Source: Thermodesulfobacteriota bacterium
GTDB taxonomy: Bacteria; Desulfobacterota; WTBG01; JAGOGO01
Reading direction: 5' to 3'
Length of the DNA stretch: 32,000 nucleotides
Assembly: GCA_026625185.1 (NCBI GenBank)
Contig: CP113000.1
Location: forward strand, 1,995,622 to 2,027,621
The notes under the pieces were generated by a model that worked only from the letters and a program-made list of their open reading frames with translations, did not search any database and had not been told where the DNA came from. The position numbers were made by a program, and so were the translations under genes. Within the stretch, counting starts at the first letter, position 1, and each line of letters starts with the position of its first letter. Shown here piece by piece: positions 14,600-31,389 of this stretch.

Positions 14600-16288
14600 A
14601 TGTCGTGGAAGTTAAAGGAGAAGGCCAGGGCCCTCCTGGCACAGGAACAAGGAACGATTGTTAAGCCCTCGGGGGGGAAGCTCTCCCTTGCCCTGGTTTT
14701 TCCCAACTATTACCATGTGGGAATGGCCAACCTGGGTTTTCAATCCGTTTATCGGATCATCAATGAGCTTCCCCAGGCAGTGTGCGAACGGGCGTTTCTT
14801 CCCGAACGAGCGGACATTCTGGAGTTTCAACGTTCTGCGACGCCCTTTTTTTCCCTCGAAACCCAGAAATCCCTCCAAGATTTCGATCTCATCGCATTTT
14901 CTCTTTCCTTTGAAAATGACTATCCCCATGTTTTAACCATCCTTGATTTAGCGCGGCTTCCTCTTCGCGCTTCGCAGCGCAAAGAAGGCTACCCGATGGT
15001 ATGTGCCGGAGGCGTTGCCGCCTTCCTTAACCCGGAGCCGCTGGCAGAATTCATGGACTTCTTTGCTCTCGGTGAAGCCGAAGAACTTTTACCGGAAACC
15101 CTTTCCTTGATTTTTAAACTCAAGAGCAAAGGGGTTCTGCGCCGTGATCTTTTAACCCGCCTTACCGCGGTTGGCGGTATTTACGTTCCCCGATTTTATT
15201 CCGTTACCTACCAGGAAAACGGACAAATTGCTGAGGTTCTTCCCCGGAAAGGAATCCCACCCATTGTCAAGCGACGCTGGGTCAAAAACGTGGATGACTA
15301 CCCGACCCAGTCCGTCATCCATGCTCCGGGGATAGAGTTCGGCGGGATGTTTCTGGTGGAAATCGGCCGGGGCTGTTCGTTTGGCTGCCGGTTCTGCGCT
15401 GCCGGATGGGTCTATCGGCCGGTGCGGATGAGGTCATTGGGCGCGATTGAAAAATCTATTCAGAGCGCTCTACGCGGTGAGAAAAAGATCGGCTTGATCA
15501 GTGCGGCGATTGGGGACCACCCTCAGCTCAAAGACATCTGCTATCACCTAAGAGCCGCGGGAGGAAAGCTTTCGGTATCTTCGCTGAGGGCTAATGTCAT
15601 AACCCGGGATATTTTGCAAGCATTAAAAGAAAGTGGTCACCAGTCAATCACTATGGCTCCGGAAACTGGTTCGGAGCGGCTCCGTCGTCTGATCAAAAAA
15701 AATATTACGGATGAAGAGATTTTTGAAGCCGTGGAGATGGTGGTTGCCAGCGGCATCCCGAACCTCCGTCTTTATTTTCTGGTCGGTCTTCCTTCGGAGG
15801 CCATGGAGGACATTGAGCAGATAGTCTCGCTGACGAAACAAATAAAACATGTTATCATCAAAAGCATTAAGAAAAAAAATCTACCGGGCACGATTAACTT
15901 AAGCCTTTCTCCTTTTGTTCCCAAGCCGTTTACCCCGTTTCAGTGGGTTCCGTTTGAGGACCTCAAACTTTTGCAGCACAAGATTAAACACATCCAGAAT
16001 GGTCTCAAGAATGAGCGCCAGGTCACGATCACCCATGACCTTCCCAAATGGAGCTACATTCAGGCTCTCTTGAGCAGAGGTGACCGGCGAGTAAGCAAGA
16101 TCCTTTTCCAGGTGCATAAGGATAACGGTGACTGGAACAAAGCCCTGCAGGAAACCGACGTCAACCCTGACTTTTACGTTTATCGCTTTCGTGAGCTTAC
16201 CGAGATCCTCCCCTGGGATTTTATTGACCAGGGCATTAAAAAAGAAACACTCATCTCCGAATATCACCGTGCTTTAACGCACGGGTAA
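14600..16288 (+). CDS. radical SAM protein (562 aa; resembles the uncharacterised TIGR03960-type family from memory)
   Basis: CxxxCxxC cluster motif in GRGCSFGCRFCAAGW. The N-terminal LALVFPNYYHVGMANLGFQSVY matches what I recall of TIGR03960-type proteins. No SPASM-like Cys cluster. Confidence 0.85.
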   Translation: MSWKLKEKARALLAQEQGTIVKPSGGKLSLALVFPNYYHVGMANLGFQSVYRIINELPQAVCERAFLPERADILEFQRSATPFFSLETQKSLQDFDLIAFSLSFENDYPHVLTILDLARLPLRASQRKEGYPMVCAGGVAAFLNPEPLAEFMDFFALGEAEELLPETLSLIFKLKSKGVLRRDLLTRLTAVGGIYVPRFYSVTYQENGQIAEVLPRKGIPPIVKRRWVKNVDDYPTQSVIHAPGIEFGGMFLVEIGRGCSFGCRFCAAGWVYRPVRMRSLGAIEKSIQSALRGEKKIGLISAAIGDHPQLKDICYHLRAAGGKLSVSSLRANVITRDILQALKESGHQSITMAPETGSERLRRLIKKNITDEEIFEAVEMVVASGIPNLRLYFLVGLPSEAMEDIEQIVSLTKQIKHVIIKSIKKKNLPGTINLSLSPFVPKPFTPFQWVPFEDLKLLQHKIKHIQNGLKNERQVTITHDLPKWSYIQALLSRGDRRVSKILFQVHKDNGDWNKALQETDVNPDFYVYRFRELTEILPWDFIDQGIKKETLISEYHRALTHG

Positions 16289-16392
16289 TACCAAGTCGCT
16301 TTTATTTGCTTATCTTTGTTGTCTCCTCGTCATACTCCTCGACGTCGATTCCTTGTCGTCGCCTCGATCTGCTTTTGAATGTAACTTGGTAT
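16288..16392. repeat. repeat copy A (105 nt) with 9-bp perfect terminal inverted repeats
   Basis: Starts on the last base of the TAA stop. Termini are ATACCAAGT ... ACTTGGTAT. The top strand is pyrimidine-rich. It is homologous to copy B (46/54 identical over the first 54 nt). Confidence 0.75.
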
Positions 16393-16433
16393 AAGTCAGT
16401 TCCGCAGCCGGAAATAAGGGGAAAAATATCTCT

Positions 16434-16461
16434 TTGCATTACCTGACAAATCCGCTAAAAT
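16434..16461 (+). promoter_or_regulatory. candidate sigma70-type promoter for the MFS gene
   Basis: TTGCAT, 16 nt spacer, TAAAAT, about 70 nt upstream of ATG 16531. Confidence 0.3.
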
Positions 16462-16530
16462 TTGAACGTGCCCGCATGGCATATTTTTTTAGCCCCGGGT
16501 GCTGTTTTTTAGAGTTGATTGAGAACAGGT

Positions 16531-17817
16531 ATGGATAATAATTCCATAAGTACAAAAAGTCTTCTTCGCAGAAAGTACCTCTATATTATCCTCCCCACGT
16601 TTATCGGGTCGATCATCGCCTATCTCGACCGGGTAAACATTGCCTATGCGGCCCTTACCATGAACGCTGACCTTGGGTTTACCGCCCAGGTTTTTGGCGT
16701 GGGCTCGGGGATCTTTTTCGTGGGGTACGTGCTCTTTGAAGTGCCGGGAGCGCTCATCGCTGAACGCTGGAGTCCCCGCGCGTGGATCGCCCGGATCATG
16801 ATTACCTGGGGGCTTATTTCTTGGTGCATGGCCTTTGTTTCGAACGCGTGGCAGTTTTACCTGGTGCGTTTTTTGCTCGGAGCGGCTGAGGCAAGTTTTT
16901 ATCCGGTTATGTACGCGAGCGTTTTTCCGCGCTGGTTTACGCCTGAGGAGCGGCCTCAGGCGCTTGCCCTGATGCTTACGTCTCTGCAGATTTCAGTGAT
17001 TATCGGCGCGCCCCTTGCCGGATGGATTATCGGCATTGAGGCCTTTGGTTGGAAAGGTTGGCAGTTCCTGTTTGTCATCGAGTCAATACCCGCGCTCATC
17101 TTCGGGGTTATGGTTTTGTTTGTGCTGGCTGACTGGCCGGAACAGGTAACCTGGCTTACCCCGGAGGAGAAGCAGTTTTTAAAAGCCCGTTTTGAGCAGG
17201 AAATTGAAGCTAAAAAATCAGTGCGCCGCTATACCGTATGGGAGGCGCTCGGCGACCGAGAGGTACTTAAGCTTTGTTTGATTTATTTTCTGTGGATAAG
17301 CGGTTTCTGGGGTTTTAACTACTGGATGCCTACGGCGCTTAAGGAAGTATCCGGCTGGTCAAACCTGATGATCGGCTGGCTGATTGTGATCCCCATGATC
17401 CTGTCGCTCTTAGCAATGCTTTTTGTGGGGCGTTCTTCGTCGAGAAGCGGAGAAAAGCGCTGGCACGGAGCAATGCCCATGTTTATCGGCGCGATCGGCT
17501 TAGGGGTCGGCACTTTTATTCACGATCCGCTTATAAATCTCATCTTCATCACTCTTACTGCCATCGGAGTATACAGCGCTTTTGGCGTCTGGTGGGCCTA
17601 TCCGACCACCTTTTTGTCCGGAACAGCAGCTGCCGGCGCGGTGGGACTGATCAATTCCTTCGGCAATGTCGGAGGATATATCGGACCGTATCTTACTGGT
17701 TTTGTCAAAGATATGACCGGCTCTTTTTCGGGGGCGTACGTATTTCTCGCTGGTTTACTGGCGTTAGCGGGCTTGTTGATGCTTACACTGAAAAAGAAGA
17801 TACCCGCCAAAGGTTGA
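16531..17817 (+). CDS. MFS transporter, anion:cation symporter (ACS)-like
   Basis: About 12 TM segments. The N-terminal YLDRVNIAYAAL.MN.DLGF......G.GIFF.GY.LFEVPG motif is typical of ACS-family permeases (tartrate, galactonate or phthalate type). ATG 16531 is preferred over the track TTG 16519. Confidence 0.88.
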   Translation: MDNNSISTKSLLRRKYLYIILPTFIGSIIAYLDRVNIAYAALTMNADLGFTAQVFGVGSGIFFVGYVLFEVPGALIAERWSPRAWIARIMITWGLISWCMAFVSNAWQFYLVRFLLGAAEASFYPVMYASVFPRWFTPEERPQALALMLTSLQISVIIGAPLAGWIIGIEAFGWKGWQFLFVIESIPALIFGVMVLFVLADWPEQVTWLTPEEKQFLKARFEQEIEAKKSVRRYTVWEALGDREVLKLCLIYFLWISGFWGFNYWMPTALKEVSGWSNLMIGWLIVIPMILSLLAMLFVGRSSSRSGEKRWHGAMPMFIGAIGLGVGTFIHDPLINLIFITLTAIGVYSAFGVWWAYPTTFLSGTAAAGAVGLINSFGNVGGYIGPYLTGFVKDMTGSFSGAYVFLAGLLALAGLLMLTLKKKIPAKG

Positions 17818-17941
17818 TACCAAATCGCCTTCATTTGTATATCTTTGTTGTCTCACCGTCATACTTCTCGCCTTACTCAAACGTGCGGCTGCATCGATTC
17901 TTTGCCCCCGCCTCGGTTTGTTTTTGAATGCACCCTTGTAT
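17817..17941. repeat. repeat copy B (125 nt), diverged homologue of copy A
   Basis: Starts on the last base of the TGA stop (ATACCAAAT...). It carries a ~20-nt internal insertion relative to A and ends ...CCCTTGTAT (degenerate terminal inverted repeat). Confidence 0.72.
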
Positions 17942-17980
17942 GAGTCTAAATATTTTGCTTTTATTACCTTCGCGATCTTA

Positions 17981-18503: not shown

Positions 18504-18535
18504 ATGTAGGGGCACGGCGCGCCGTGCCCCTACAT
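18504..18535. repeat. REP-like GC-rich perfect palindrome with GTAG heads
   Basis: ATGTAGGGGCACGGCG/CGCCGTGCCCCTACAT, 16-bp arms. It shares the GTAGGGGCACG arm with the palindrome at 30483-30510. No T-run follows. Confidence 0.75.
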
Positions 18536-18588
18536 AATTCTAAATTCGCCATACACACTAAAAATTGCTCAACGAAATTTAGAAAATG

Positions 18589-21618: not shown

Positions 21619-21703
21619 AAAGTTAACATACCTCCTTAATGTGGTATTTTCTATTTACTCGATTATCTAAAACTTCTACAATCTGCAATAAATATACCAA
21701 GTA

Positions 21704-23077
21704 CTATTCTACTCTTGCAAAATCCGCCAAAAAATGTCTGAGTGTTTTCGGCTCGTACGCAATTTTAAATCCCTTTACCTTATCTTTTTTTTTCGCCACG
21801 TGGATAACCCCCTCGGCAACGAAATCCATATGCCTGTAAGTATATACCCTGCGCGGAACCGCCAGCCTGGTCAATTCCAAACGCGGGTAGTCAGTCTTTC
21901 CGGTAATTTCATCTTTTTTGGCAAACGCAACGGAACCAATTTCAGCGGCCCTCACACCTGCCTCAATATACATTTCAACTACCAGGGTATAAGCCGGAAA
22001 CTGGCTCTGGGGTATACGAGGGAAAACGGACTTTGCATCAATGTATATCCCATGACCGCCCGGCGGCTGCACAATAGGGATGCCTGCATCATCCAGCTTT
22101 TTCCCTAAATAATTTACCTGATCGATTCTGTAAGCAAGATAATCTTCCTCTATGACCTCTTCCAAACCTCGTGCCAGCGCTTCCAGATCTCTTCCAGCCA
22201 TACCTCCATAGGTAATAAAACCTTCAAGCAGTATAAGCAATTCACAGCATTGTTCATACAATTTCTTGTCATTCAAAGCAATAAAGCCGCCGATATTAAC
22301 CAGACCGTCCTTTTTTGCACTCATAATGCATCCATCGGCGTACGAAAACATCTCTCGGACGATATCTTTTACTTCCTTCTCTCCATATCCCGGCTCCCGC
22401 AGCTTTATGAAGTAAGCGTTTTCAGCAAATCTGGCAGCATCTATATACAAGGGAATTCCAAATCCCGACAGCAATTTTCTCGTTCTTCTTAAGTTTTCCA
22501 TGGATACCGGCTGGCCGCCGATAGTGTTGTTGGTTACCGTCATTAAGAAAAACGGTATGTTATCTCGTTGACTTTTTATTAGATTTTCCAATTGTTCAAT
22601 ATTCACGTTTCCTTTAAAGGGGTGATATGTTTTGGGGTCATATGCTTCATCAAGCAATAAATTTACAGCCTTTCCCCCTTTATGTATAATATGAGCCTGC
22701 GTACTGTCGAAATGGGCATTGCCGGGTACAACATCACCCGGTTTAATTAATTGAGAAAAAAGTATGTTTTCCGCCGGCCTACCCTGATGCGTCGGAACCA
22801 CATATTCAAAACCGGTGATTTTTTTAATCACTCTCTCAAGGTTGAAAAAACTCTTGCTTCCGGCGTATGATTCATCGCCTTCCATAATACCCGCCCACTG
22901 GTGGTCGCTCATTGCCGAAGTTCCGCTGTCGGTCAGAAGATCTATGTAAACATCTTCCCCCTTTAAGCGGAATATATTGTAACGGGCTTCCTCCATTTTT
23001 TTTAGACGCTCGTTTTTGGAAATGAGTTTTATTGGCTCCACCACTTTAATTTTGAATGGTTCGACTTTGACCGTCAT
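21704..23077 (-). CDS. tnaA: tryptophanase / tyrosine phenol-lyase family PLP beta-eliminating lyase (specificity residues tryptophanase-like)
   Basis: Full-length similarity by eye to TnaA and TPL: DLLTDSGT.AMS, PTHQGR.AEN, ARFAENAYFIK, PLP-lysine motif SAKKDGLVNIGG, RLAVPRRVYT..HMD and YEPK.LRHF. ATG 23077 is preferred, because the predicted promoter -10 lies only 6 nt upstream of the track's GTG 23128. Confidence 0.9.
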   Translation of the reverse strand: MTVKVEPFKIKVVEPIKLISKNERLKKMEEARYNIFRLKGEDVYIDLLTDSGTSAMSDHQWAGIMEGDESYAGSKSFFNLERVIKKITGFEYVVPTHQGRPAENILFSQLIKPGDVVPGNAHFDSTQAHIIHKGGKAVNLLLDEAYDPKTYHPFKGNVNIEQLENLIKSQRDNIPFFLMTVTNNTIGGQPVSMENLRRTRKLLSGFGIPLYIDAARFAENAYFIKLREPGYGEKEVKDIVREMFSYADGCIMSAKKDGLVNIGGFIALNDKKLYEQCCELLILLEGFITYGGMAGRDLEALARGLEEVIEEDYLAYRIDQVNYLGKKLDDAGIPIVQPPGGHGIYIDAKSVFPRIPQSQFPAYTLVVEMYIEAGVRAAEIGSVAFAKKDEITGKTDYPRLELTRLAVPRRVYTYRHMDFVAEGVIHVAKKKDKVKGFKIAYEPKTLRHFLADFARVE

Positions 23078-23134
23078 TGAGCAAATTTCCCTTTTTTTGT
23101 TTCTTGCTGAAATTACAGCATTCTTCACTGTGGT

Positions 23135-30482: not shown

Positions 30483-30510
30483 GTAGGGGCACGTTGCAAC
30501 GTGCCCCTAC
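30483..30510. terminator. REP-like GTAG-headed palindrome acting as a likely terminator between convergent genes
   Basis: GTAGGGGCACG-ttgcaa-CGTGCCCCTAC (11-bp arms) followed on the + strand by AAATTTTT. It lies 21 nt after the rSAM stop and 6 nt from the glyQ stop. Confidence 0.65.
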
Positions 30511-30516
30511 AAATTT

Positions 30517-31389
30517 TTAACCTTTTTTCAGAAGAGGATACCCCATCTCCTCACGCTGCTTCACGTATCCTTCGGCGCAAACACGAGCCAGGTTGCGGAC
30601 CCGGCCGATGTAGCCGACCCGCTCAGTGACGCTGATGGCTTTGCGCGCATCGAGTAGATTAAAGGTATGAGAGCACTTCAGACAATAATCATAGGCCGGA
30701 AGGATAAGACCCCTTTTGCTCATGCGGAGCGATTCCTGCTCGTACATGTCAAATAATTTAAAAAGCATGTCAATATCCGCTTCTTCGAAGTTGTAGCAGG
30801 AAAATTCTACCTCACTTTGGTGGTGGATGTCACGGTAACGAATTTCTTTGACCCAATCAATGTCATAAACATTGTCTTTCCCCTGAAGGTACATGGCAAT
30901 CCGCTCCAGACCATAGGTAATCTCAACCGAAATGGGTTTCAGGTCAATCCCGCCAGCCTGCTGGAAGTACGTGAACTGAGTTATCTCCATGCCGTCGAGC
31001 CAGACCTCCCAGCCCAAACCCCAGGCGCCCAGGGTTGGAGACTCCCAGTCATCCTCCACAAACCGGATATCATGATCCTGCGAGTTGATTCCTAACGTCG
31101 CCAGACTTTTTAAATAAATATCCTGGATATCACGCGGAGATGGTTTCATGATGACCTGAAACTGATAGTAATGCTGGAGCCGATTCGGGTTATCACCGTA
31201 GCGCCCATCATTAGGGCGACGGGATGGCTCAACGTAAGCTACATTCCAAGGCTCCGGTCCAAGGACTCGGAGGAAGGTCGCCGGGTTAAAGGTGCCCGCG
31301 CCCACTTCGATATCATAAGGCTGCTGAAGCACACAGTGTTGTTTTGCCCAAAAATTTTGCAGCGCCAAGATCAGTTCTTGAAAATTCAT
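30517..31389 (-). CDS. glyQ: glycine--tRNA ligase alpha subunit
   Basis: [16 protein letters not shown]...QPYD.EVGAGT.NPATFLR is near-canonical GlyQ. 290 aa. SD GGAAGGAG lies upstream. Confidence 0.98.

Follow-up and report, generated by a model that had tools for sequence, protein, structure and literature searches.

Stop-codon repeats around a resident MFS transporter gene appear to be independent insertions of a TNA-duplicating MITE with a probable IS630-type driver

In a 32,000-nt window of a Thermodesulfobacteriota genome (the window being the whole stretch of DNA that was analyzed), a gene for an MFS transporter lies between two copies of a repeat, each of which begins on the stop codon of the gene upstream. 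Did the repeats deliver the transporter, do they act as 3´-UTR elements of the genes that they follow, or are they members of a MITE-like family? All three possibilities were raised in the original prediction, and we weighed them using the present genome (G000, 3.3 Mb) and three further species of the genus (G001, G002 and G003), of which the sister species G002 and G003 supplied the young insertions. The features of the locus are as follows.

14600–16288, plus strand: B12-binding-type radical SAM (rSAM) gene, 562 aa (ORF list; Pfam Radical_SAM_N2 and Radical_SAM)
16286–16288, plus strand: TAA, left TSD of copy A and at the same time the stop codon of the rSAM gene (flank reading)
16289–16391, plus strand: copy A of the MITE, in the 103-nt size class (agrees with the family consensus at 97/103 positions)
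16392–16394, plus strand: right TSD of copy A, TAA (flank reading)
16519–17817, plus strand: MFS transporter gene (longest ORF from TTG 16519; Pfam MFS_1, E 3.5e-51)
17815–17817, plus strand: TGA, left TSD of copy B and at the same time the stop codon of the MFS gene (flank reading)
17818–17940, plus strand: MITE copy B, 123-nt size class, decayed (102/123 matches to the consensus)
17941–17943, plus strand: right TSD of copy B, TGA (flank reading)

Both copies were found where they had been predicted, with 46/54 identical positions over the first 54 nt upon re-counting, an extra block of 20 nt in copy B, and 38/50 identical positions between the 3´ ends of A and B. The perfect 9-bp termini reported for copy A (ATACCAAGT/ACTTGGTAT) were confirmed as well; they are the ends of TIRs (16289–16314 and 16366–16391) that match at 17/26 positions, and the TIRs of copy B match at 13/26. 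Both copies do sit on stop codons, with boundaries that could be refined: the elements start at 16289 and 17818, and the stop codons are the left TSDs. Each copy thus starts on a stop codon because a T-N-A target was duplicated, which rebuilt TAA or TGA.

The original prediction called for a search for further genomic copies, and nhmmer returned 49 dispersed matches in G000, 43 of them roughly full copies, which puts the repeat well beyond a chance resemblance. The family has size classes of 77, 103, 123 and ~153 nt, with the 123-nt class of copy B being the majority form, and throughout this range (77–153 nt) the elements are small and hold no ORF, as expected of a MITE (<300 bp, non-coding). 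In the alignment, TIRs of ~26 bp, TACCAAGT(C/T)GC(C/A)TTCA..., surround a short interior, and the consensus ends, TACCAAGT...ACTTGGTA, are imperfect inverted repeats that match at 20/26 positions. The TNA triplets on both flanks were identical for 32/43 copies in G000 and for 57/62 in G002/G003. G002/G003 have 67–85 candidate copies, with 97% identity to the consensus for copies in these species and 92% in G000; just 1–2 MITE copies were found in G001. Unpaired variant ends in G002 were diverged MITEs or fragments.

The element is mobile, since 23 insertions of G002/G003 have clean empty sites in G000, each with a single TNA. Among young insertions, a pyrimidine (Y) precedes the TNA at −1 in 82% of cases, and a purine (R) follows it at +1 in 79%. 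REP/REPIN-RAYT systems consist of short, GC-rich palindromes that lack a TSD and go with a Y1 (RAYT) transposase in single copy; the present elements do not fit this type, as they are bounded by TIRs and have a TSD, with the duplication evident from the empty sites. The MITE-like reading in the original prediction is instead upheld: the family combines small, non-coding elements with TIRs, a TSD of fixed length, many dispersed copies, empty sites in relatives, and ends common to an autonomous element that is described below.

Copies A and B are direct repeats of one family bracketing one gene, which is how a composite transposon with two arms, or the predicted cassette-type scar, might look had it brought in the MFS gene, and the bracketing arrangement recurs, as unrelated housekeeping genes elsewhere also sit between two such ends. 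Against such a delivery, a separate and matching TSD flanks each of the two copies (TAA/TAA for A, TGA/TGA for B), whereas the outer pair is mismatched, and the two copies belong to different size classes. They also differ in distribution: copy A of G000 has orthologues in G002 and G003 and is absent in G001, whereas copy B is found in G000 and G002 only, G001 and G003 having an empty site there in which the MFS gene ends in just one TGA. The search for empty sites in relatives thus found G001 without A and B and G003 without B, and the MFS gene there regardless; it follows the rSAM gene in 4/4 species of the genus, including the species without any repeat there. Composition also argues against delivery. 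The gene, described as more GC-rich than its neighbors, is so (GC 0.51–0.52) relative to the downstream genes but not relative to the upstream genes (0.47–0.54), whose GC it equals. Because the rSAM–MFS pair is intact in all four species, the repeats did not bring in the transporter, and we consider the chance that a composite or cassette brought it here to be negligible. From the sequence comparisons, the MFS gene, with ATG 16532 as its likely start where conservation with G001 begins, is a resident of the locus and not cargo, and copies A and B are independent insertions of the MITE.

Such insertions need not land on stop codons. The original prediction wondered whether copies always abut them: they do not always, but they are enriched there, with 14/43 copies in G000 next to the stop of an ORF that is 80 aa or longer (8-fold enrichment, p about 1e-9). 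By comparison, stops make up 4.2% of the permissive TNA sites in G000 and 3.6% of its YTNAR sites; all of these stop-codon statistics rest on gene calls by a longest-ORF heuristic. Among the young insertions, 2/23 were on stops, which is not above expectation. Given that stop-codon copies are enriched in G000 but not among young insertions, we infer survivorship as the cause of the excess. Where the element inserts precisely at a stop codon, the left duplication rebuilds the stop, as TAA and TGA are TNA triplets, and the protein is unchanged; such copies are harmless and would accumulate with time.

A position after stop codons could also be read as a sign that the element is, or became, a functional 3´-UTR RNA, with its C-rich top strand being a Rho-loading site or transcript end. 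The top strand is C-rich and G-poor, as had been noted (C 31%, G 18%), 12/14 of the stop-codon copies in G000 have the top strand sense to the upstream gene (binomial p = 0.013), and 36/43 copies face at least one gene 3´ end. However, this orientation bias did not hold for the further stop-codon copies that G002/G003 contribute (3:4; total 15:6, p = 0.08), copies overall were in all four orientations to their neighbors, and the young insertions lack a stop-codon preference altogether. None of the Rfam families matched at the gathering threshold, and the alifold energy was within the column-shuffle range for both strands, with almost no double-changed pairs. Single-sequence folds were significant, but because of TIR pairing only, with the alignment fold no better than shuffles. 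With no Rfam match, no covariation above column shuffles and every gene orientation represented, the conserved 3´-UTR or Rho-utilization element of the original prediction found no support, and we regard an RNA function of the element as unlikely. A secondary effect of the stop-codon copies on transcripts may exist, given their 12:2 orientation bias in G000.

The 9-mer at the end of copy A recurs once elsewhere in the window.

21694–21702, plus strand: solitary ATACCAAGT 9-mer, lying 1 nt away from the TAG that ends a minus-strand gene at 21704–23128

This third 9-mer is present near a stop codon, as described, but the rest of the element is missing at this site, and no further similarity to the MITE was found around it. 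About 0.12 matches to the 9-mer are expected by chance per window, and it could be due to chance or be a worn relic of the element.

With regard to what moves the MITE, the same 16–18-nt ends with TNA duplications were found on unrelated MITEs in many phyla, and ends matching over the terminal 15–18 nt, together with TNA flanks, on seven independent IS630-family elements. These IS630-type elements are 1123–1126 bp, encode an HTH orfA and a DDE_3 orfB with a frameshift at an A-run, and have the TIR TAC(C/T)AAGTTGCA(G/T)TC. The TNA TSDs are perfect for 5/7 elements (TCA/TCA, TTA/TTA, TTA/TTA, TAA/TAA and TTA/TTA), with two pairs imperfect, and one end matches the MITE right TIR at 18/18 positions. 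A named example is the element on Polaromonas naphthalenivorans pPNAP04, which has the TSD TGA/TGA. In G001, TGA is followed by TACTAAGTTGCATTCA and then by a frameshifted HTH and DDE_3 gene, a pseudogene with a matching left end whose homologues match NCBIfam IS630 (NF033545). This pseudogene was the only copy of the transposase clade found in the genus; the transposase was found neither in G000 by tblastn nor in the G002/G003 assemblies, though copies there look young, so that the cognate DDE_3 transposase expected in the same genome as an IS630-derived MITE was not found in G000, G002 or G003.

Several other candidates were rejected. The one long end pair in G000 (2029155–2030643; 20-mer ends, at most 4 mismatches) contains a lipoprotein-like ORF together with further repeats, but no transposase. 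Upon self-BLAST, the only multi-copy IS in G000 belonged to the IS30 family; its 8 identical copies are 1108 bp long, have unrelated TIRs and make non-specific 3-bp duplications. The remaining long repeats were gene duplications. A 16-mer end scan of all species genomes gave many MITEs and no transposase beside unpaired ends, clustering of ORFs beside ends (150 aa, 70 aa) yielded nothing beyond chance matches such as histidine kinases, and apparent long end pairs in other genomes enclose housekeeping genes. For a cyanobacterium that has 90 matching ends, the TIR did not border the DDE_3 genes detected.

IS630/Tc1/mariner elements duplicate TA and are not known to duplicate TNA. For the present family, a 2-bp TA duplication was not found, as the empty sites hold a single TNA and include TGA and TCA sites without a TA dinucleotide, with the proviso that a 3-bp TNA duplication and a 1-bp duplication between an invariant T and an invariant A look the same in sequence. 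TNA-duplicating orphan MITEs have so far been attributed to IS5/PIF-type enzymes by analogy. Were the driver here an IS5/PIF-Harbinger-type transposase (IS1031/IS427/ISL2 groups), the IS630-type ends would be coincidental or secondary; 3-bp TSDs of the ANT/TNA/TWA type are typical of this superfamily (PMC4482050), and the MITE family does have a 3-bp TNA/TWA duplication. Nevertheless, the PF01609, PF13586, PF13359, PF13612 and PF13737 genes of the four genus genomes had other TIRs or none and not the MITE TIR, and the seven independent IS630-family elements share the MITE ends along with TNA flanks. We therefore give an IS5/PIF driver very little credence.

An IS630-type driver is the reading we prefer, and we infer trans-mobilization of the MITE by this clade from the shared ends. 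Movement would be by cut and paste, with the transposase supplied in trans by a ~1.12-kb IS630-family clade whose HTH orfA and DDE_3 orfB would be joined by a −1 frameshift on the A-run. Integration would take place at Y-TNA-R with a presumed 3-nt staggered cut, which would leave TNA duplicated on both sides. The G000 copies are old and, as the genome no longer has that transposase, are fossils. Overall, copies A and B very probably are independent, old MITE insertions at TNA that carried no cargo, with an IS630-clade transposase most likely acting in trans. More speculatively, and with considerable doubt on our part, a widespread IS630 clade with a 3-nt stagger at Y-TNA-R might drive TNA-duplicating orphan MITEs across phyla, with a genome-wide pile-up on stop codons because TAA and TGA are targets that duplication rebuilds, and with some copies co-opted as orientation-dependent 3´-UTR elements.

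The link of the MITE family to an IS630-type transposase is new. In the literature searched, no paper tied IS630 to TNA duplication, and prokaryotic MITE reviews contained no match to the TACCAAGT...ACTTGGTA ends. For the locus itself, the outcome is deflationary, with a transporter that is resident and repeats that are ordinary selfish DNA. Knowing that TNA duplication rebuilds TAA and TGA lets annotators recognize such elements without invoking 3´-UTR functions, and the common ends with TNA duplications provide a testable candidate transposase for TNA-duplicating MITEs. The findings also suggest that, for IS630-family elements with 'TA' flanks, both boundaries may have been misplaced by two bases.

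Among known systems, the Correia elements (CREE/NEMIS) of Neisseria are like the present MITE in size (~100–150 bp), in having internal-deletion size variants, and in often lying near genes, but they duplicate TA and not TNA, their sequences are unrelated, and we know of no transposase for them. The TA target is also canonical for RUP and IS630-Spn1. RUP is, like the present MITE, a ~100-bp, non-coding element that is dispersed mostly between genes and has TIRs resembling an IS630-family IS, but differs in its TA duplication, its unrelated sequence and its host, which here is an uncultured Thermodesulfobacteriota genus. For this 107-bp MITE of Streptococcus pneumoniae (RUP stands for repeat unit of pneumococcus), which is linked to IS630-Spn1, trans-mobilization has been proposed (PMC3049150).

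IS630 of Shigella and Tc1/mariner share with the candidate driver the NCBIfam 'IS630 family transposase' and Pfam DDE_3 assignments and an HTH N-terminus, and the C-TA-G target of IS630 is paralleled by the palindromic Y-TNA-R of the present family. The candidate driver differs in that its duplication is the 3-bp TNA and not the 2-bp TA, and in having its transposase split into two ORFs at the A-run, and, unlike for IS630, the empty sites indicate that the terminal TA is part of the present element. Tourist-like and PIF-Harbinger (PHIS) elements are small, TIR-bounded and flanked by 3-bp TNA/TWA duplications (PMC4482050), as is the present MITE, but the present ends go with an IS630-type (DDE_3) transposase and not a PIF/IS5-type one, and the present hosts are bacterial. 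Finally, the Nezha MITE of Anabaena/Nostoc (130–170 bp), for which a comparison of empty and filled sites demonstrated mobility, shares TIRs and nearly the same direct repeats with ISNpu3, its proposed partner, which is found in another species (PMC3184786). By its description it resembles the present MITE, and ends matching the latter are abundant in cyanobacteria too.

Rereading of the region confirmed the arrangement described in the original prediction, in which two repeats, copies A and B, each follow a stop codon directly.

14600-16288, + strand: rSAM gene, encoding a B12-binding-type radical SAM protein (Pfam); stop TAA
16289-16391: copy A, 103 nt, directly 3´ of rSAM
16519-17817, + strand: MFS transporter gene (MFS_1, Pfam); stop TGA
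17818-17940: copy B, 123 nt, directly 3´ of MFS

A metallo-beta-lactamase-fold gene (Pfam) lies downstream of the MFS gene. The identity counts reported for the two copies were exact (46/54 at the 5´ end, 38/50 at the 3´ end), as was the perfect 9-bp terminal inverted repeat of copy A. Pairwise alignment gave 83% column identity, with a single 20-nt block exclusive to B. The longest MFS ORF begins at TTG 16519, but ATG 16532 is the more likely start, given that conservation with G001, a genome of another species in the genus, begins there. We also noted a perfect GC-rich palindrome, GTAGGGGCACG(NNNNNN)CGTGCCCCTAC, with an A/T-rich tail, present twice in the window (18505-18543 and 30483-30520); both resemble terminators or members of a further small repeat family.

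BLAST and three rounds of nhmmer against the genome holding the window (G000, a single 3.30-Mb contig with the window at 1,995,622-2,027,621) detected 49 family matches, of which 43 are roughly full copies and the remainder fragments. A and B belong to this dispersed family and are not a local duplication. With all copies aligned in a single orientation, four size classes are seen (77, 103, 123 and ~153 nt), and most copies are of the 123-nt class. Copies of 103 nt, A among them, are missing a 20-nt GTACG...CGTAC hairpin block; those of 153 nt have an additional GC-rich hairpin. Between the consensus ends, TACCAAGTCGCCTTCATTTGCATATC on the left and TACCAAGTTGCATTCAAAAGCAGATC on the right (reverse complement), 20/26 positions match. 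In six ~153-nt copies (831431, 1541813, 1556682, 1574692, 2157505 and 1546310), a nested 47-nt GC-rich hairpin (CCTCACCCACCCCTCTCCCC...GGGGAGAGGGATAGGGTGAGGGG) occupies one fixed position, with weaker partial matches at four other sites in G000. A 1.49-kb segment 1.5 kb past the window end (G000:C1:2029155-2030643; L031:1001-2489) lies between MITE halves of 46 nt (left) and ~32 nt (right), flanked by TCA/GCA. It contains a 190-aa lipoprotein-like ORF without a Pfam match, along with parts of two further dispersed repeat families, and is either a disrupted MITE copy or a cargo-carrying derivative.

Every copy has T-N-A directly outside TACC...GGTA, and the middle base agrees between the two flanks in 32/43 copies in G000 and in 57/62 in G002 and G003, the genomes of two sister species in the genus. 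For 23 insertions in G002/G003, the corresponding G000 locus lacks the element and has a single TNA; for example, ...aaatgtc TAA [123 nt] TAA gcttat... corresponds to ...aaatgtc taa acttat.... TGA and TCA sites, which contain no TA dinucleotide, likewise show a single TNA when empty. These empty sites prove insertion with TNA duplication; strictly, what they prove is that the central base at least is duplicated, between a fixed T and a fixed A. Together with the dispersed copies, they bear out the original MITE-like reading. Copies A and B are flanked by TAA/TAA and TGA/TGA, respectively; the stop codon preceding each represents the left-hand target duplicate, which is why both had appeared to begin on a stop codon's final base. 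Young insertions have Y at -1 in 82% and R at +1 in 79%, defining the target as the palindrome Y-TNA-R.

Copies occur in G000, G002 and G003, with 1-2 in G001, and none turned up in 37 other genomes from the class; the family as such is restricted to the genus. Identity to the consensus is 97.6% in G002, 97.2% in G003 and 92.1% in G000. A MAG labelled Nitrospirota (L188:5425-5547; CAZYNY010000085.1) holds a 123-nt copy whose interior is that of this family (nhmmer E 1e-18), indicating horizontal spread or a binning error. Orthologous insertions also differ in size class between G000 and G002/G003 (123/151, 123/77, 123/103 and 103/123 nt; G000 copies 2157505, 702747, 1823941, 758711 and 1607382), a difference that requires repeated internal deletion or insertion, gene conversion among copies, or a new insertion into the same TNA.

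Copies A and B at the rSAM-MFS locus in four species of the genus
G000: A present, 103 nt, TAA/TAA; B present
G002: A present, 103 nt, TAA/TAA; B present
G003: A present, 103 nt, TAA/TAA; B site empty, single TGA
G001: A absent, different palindromic element after the rSAM stop; B site empty, single TGA

At the empty B sites the sequence is ...AAAGATTGA|GG(A/C)CAAAGATTGTG.... Since A and B differ in species distribution while rSAM adjoins MFS in each of the four species, A and B were inserted at separate times and did not deliver the transporter. The proposal of a cassette-type recombination scar is thus refuted: comparison with empty sites in relatives found the MFS gene after rSAM with or without the repeats, and its GC content (0.51-0.52) equals that of the upstream genes. 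In G001, the only species without A, the element directly after the rSAM stop (L045:3190-3300) is ~105 nt and palindromic, GGTTACCCCGTTAGAAA...TTTCTAACGGGGTTTACC; this site has therefore been struck by two unrelated small elements.

We examined stop codons using 2782 G000 genes called as greedy longest ORFs. In 14/43 G000 copies (p about 1e-9), the TNA duplicate serves as the in-frame stop of an ORF ≥80 aa, against gene stops at 4.2% of TNA sites outside coding sequence and 3.6% of YTNAR sites. Only 2/23 young insertions, empty in G000, adjoin a stop, no more than expected, compared with 4/13 insertions shared with G000; the excess therefore grows with age. Although the numbers are small, we infer that this pattern fits survivorship rather than targeting, since insertion on a stop alters no protein and disrupts no promoter.

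The original prediction had also raised a conserved 3´-UTR element resembling a Rho utilization site. The top strand is indeed C-rich and G-poor (C 31%, G 18%), and stop-codon copies in G000 have the C-rich strand as sense 12:2; the extra stop-codon copies of G002/G003 are 3:4, for a combined 15:6 (p = 0.08). The function is unsupported: no Rfam family matched the element at threshold, single-copy folds gain from TIR pairing only, and among 66 distinct 123-nt copies the consensus fold was within the column-shuffle range on either strand, with very few double changes. Relative to the neighbouring genes, copies in G000 fall into all four orientation classes, 19/43 between convergent genes. Loading of Rho on sense-oriented copies is conceivable but has no support.

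A 3-bp TNA duplication is a pointer to an IS5/PIF-type enzyme (PMC4482050), but the DDE_Tnp_1-, IS427- and Harbinger-type genes in the four genomes of the genus are never bounded by MITE ends. The only clearly active IS in G000 is an IS30-family element unrelated to the MITE, 1108 bp long, with eight 100%-identical copies outside the window (G000:C1:407415-408522; 677462, 763709, 1160022, 1439204, 2180290, 2397613 and 3256045) and one half copy. It has the TIR GGTAGAATCAACTTCAAAGTGCACC and non-specific 3-bp duplications (atc, tta, gtg); one flank common to several copies suggests recombination between them.

A search for DDE_3 (IS630) gave a lead in G001: TGA|TACTAAGTTGCATTCA, with an HTH ORF 58 nt further on, then an A8 run where shifting by -1 gives access to the DDE_3 frame, and lastly a second, inactivating frameshift. 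Reading through this pseudogene yielded 473 homologues that match the NCBIfam "IS630 family transposase", many of them on ~1.1-1.3 kb contigs. In fetched DNA, the homologous units are 1123-1126 bp, with orfA (166 aa, HTH) and orfB (~199 aa, DDE_3), and end in TAC(C/T)AAGTTGCA(G/T)TC. Their flanks are always TNA, with perfect pairs TCA/TCA, TTA/TTA, TTA/TTA, TAA/TAA and TTA/TTA and imperfect pairs TAA/TCA and TGA/TAA. The left end of one such element, TACCAAGTTGCATTCAAA, equals the MITE right end over 18 nt. A member from a cultured host, located on the Polaromonas naphthalenivorans CJ2 plasmid pPNAP04, is 1130 bp long with TGA/TGA flanks and is annotated solely as "winged helix-turn-helix" and "transposase". 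More remote relatives, with a single ORF (353 aa), end in TACCAATCCGCA(G/T)TCTAAATGG, adjoining TGA or TCA. Judging from these sequence matches, the IS630-type clade is a candidate transposase for the MITE. It was not detected in G000, G002 or G003. The G000 MITE copies are fossils; no source was found for the recent burst in G002/G003, whose bins could lack an IS.

The same ends are found across phyla. Scanning one genome per species with TACCAAGTNGCNTTCA gave at least 120 stretches; among the matches listed, 40 elements of 53-252 nt have two such ends, inverted, with unrelated interiors and TNA flanks (identical pair in 30/40, mostly TTA or TAA). The consensus common to the ends is again TACCAAGTTGCATTCAAA. 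The 40 elements stem from Smithella and other Desulfobacterota, Cyanobacteria, Ignavibacteria, Spirochaetota, Calditrichota, Nitrospirota, and Alpha-, Beta- and Gammaproteobacteria, including Rickettsiales MAGs. In one genome from the Cyanobacteria, 90 exact ends were counted.

Collectively, these data give the stop-codon rule a mechanistic explanation and name a concrete candidate transposase. In the literature searched, no description of TNA duplication by IS630-type elements was found, and we know of none. The element itself is ordinary, a new family of a known kind: it is in kind a classical bacterial MITE, and the nearest known system is RUP/IS630-Spn1. The sole defining feature of IS630-type elements that fails here is the TA duplication, as the terminal TA lies inside the element and the duplication is TNA.
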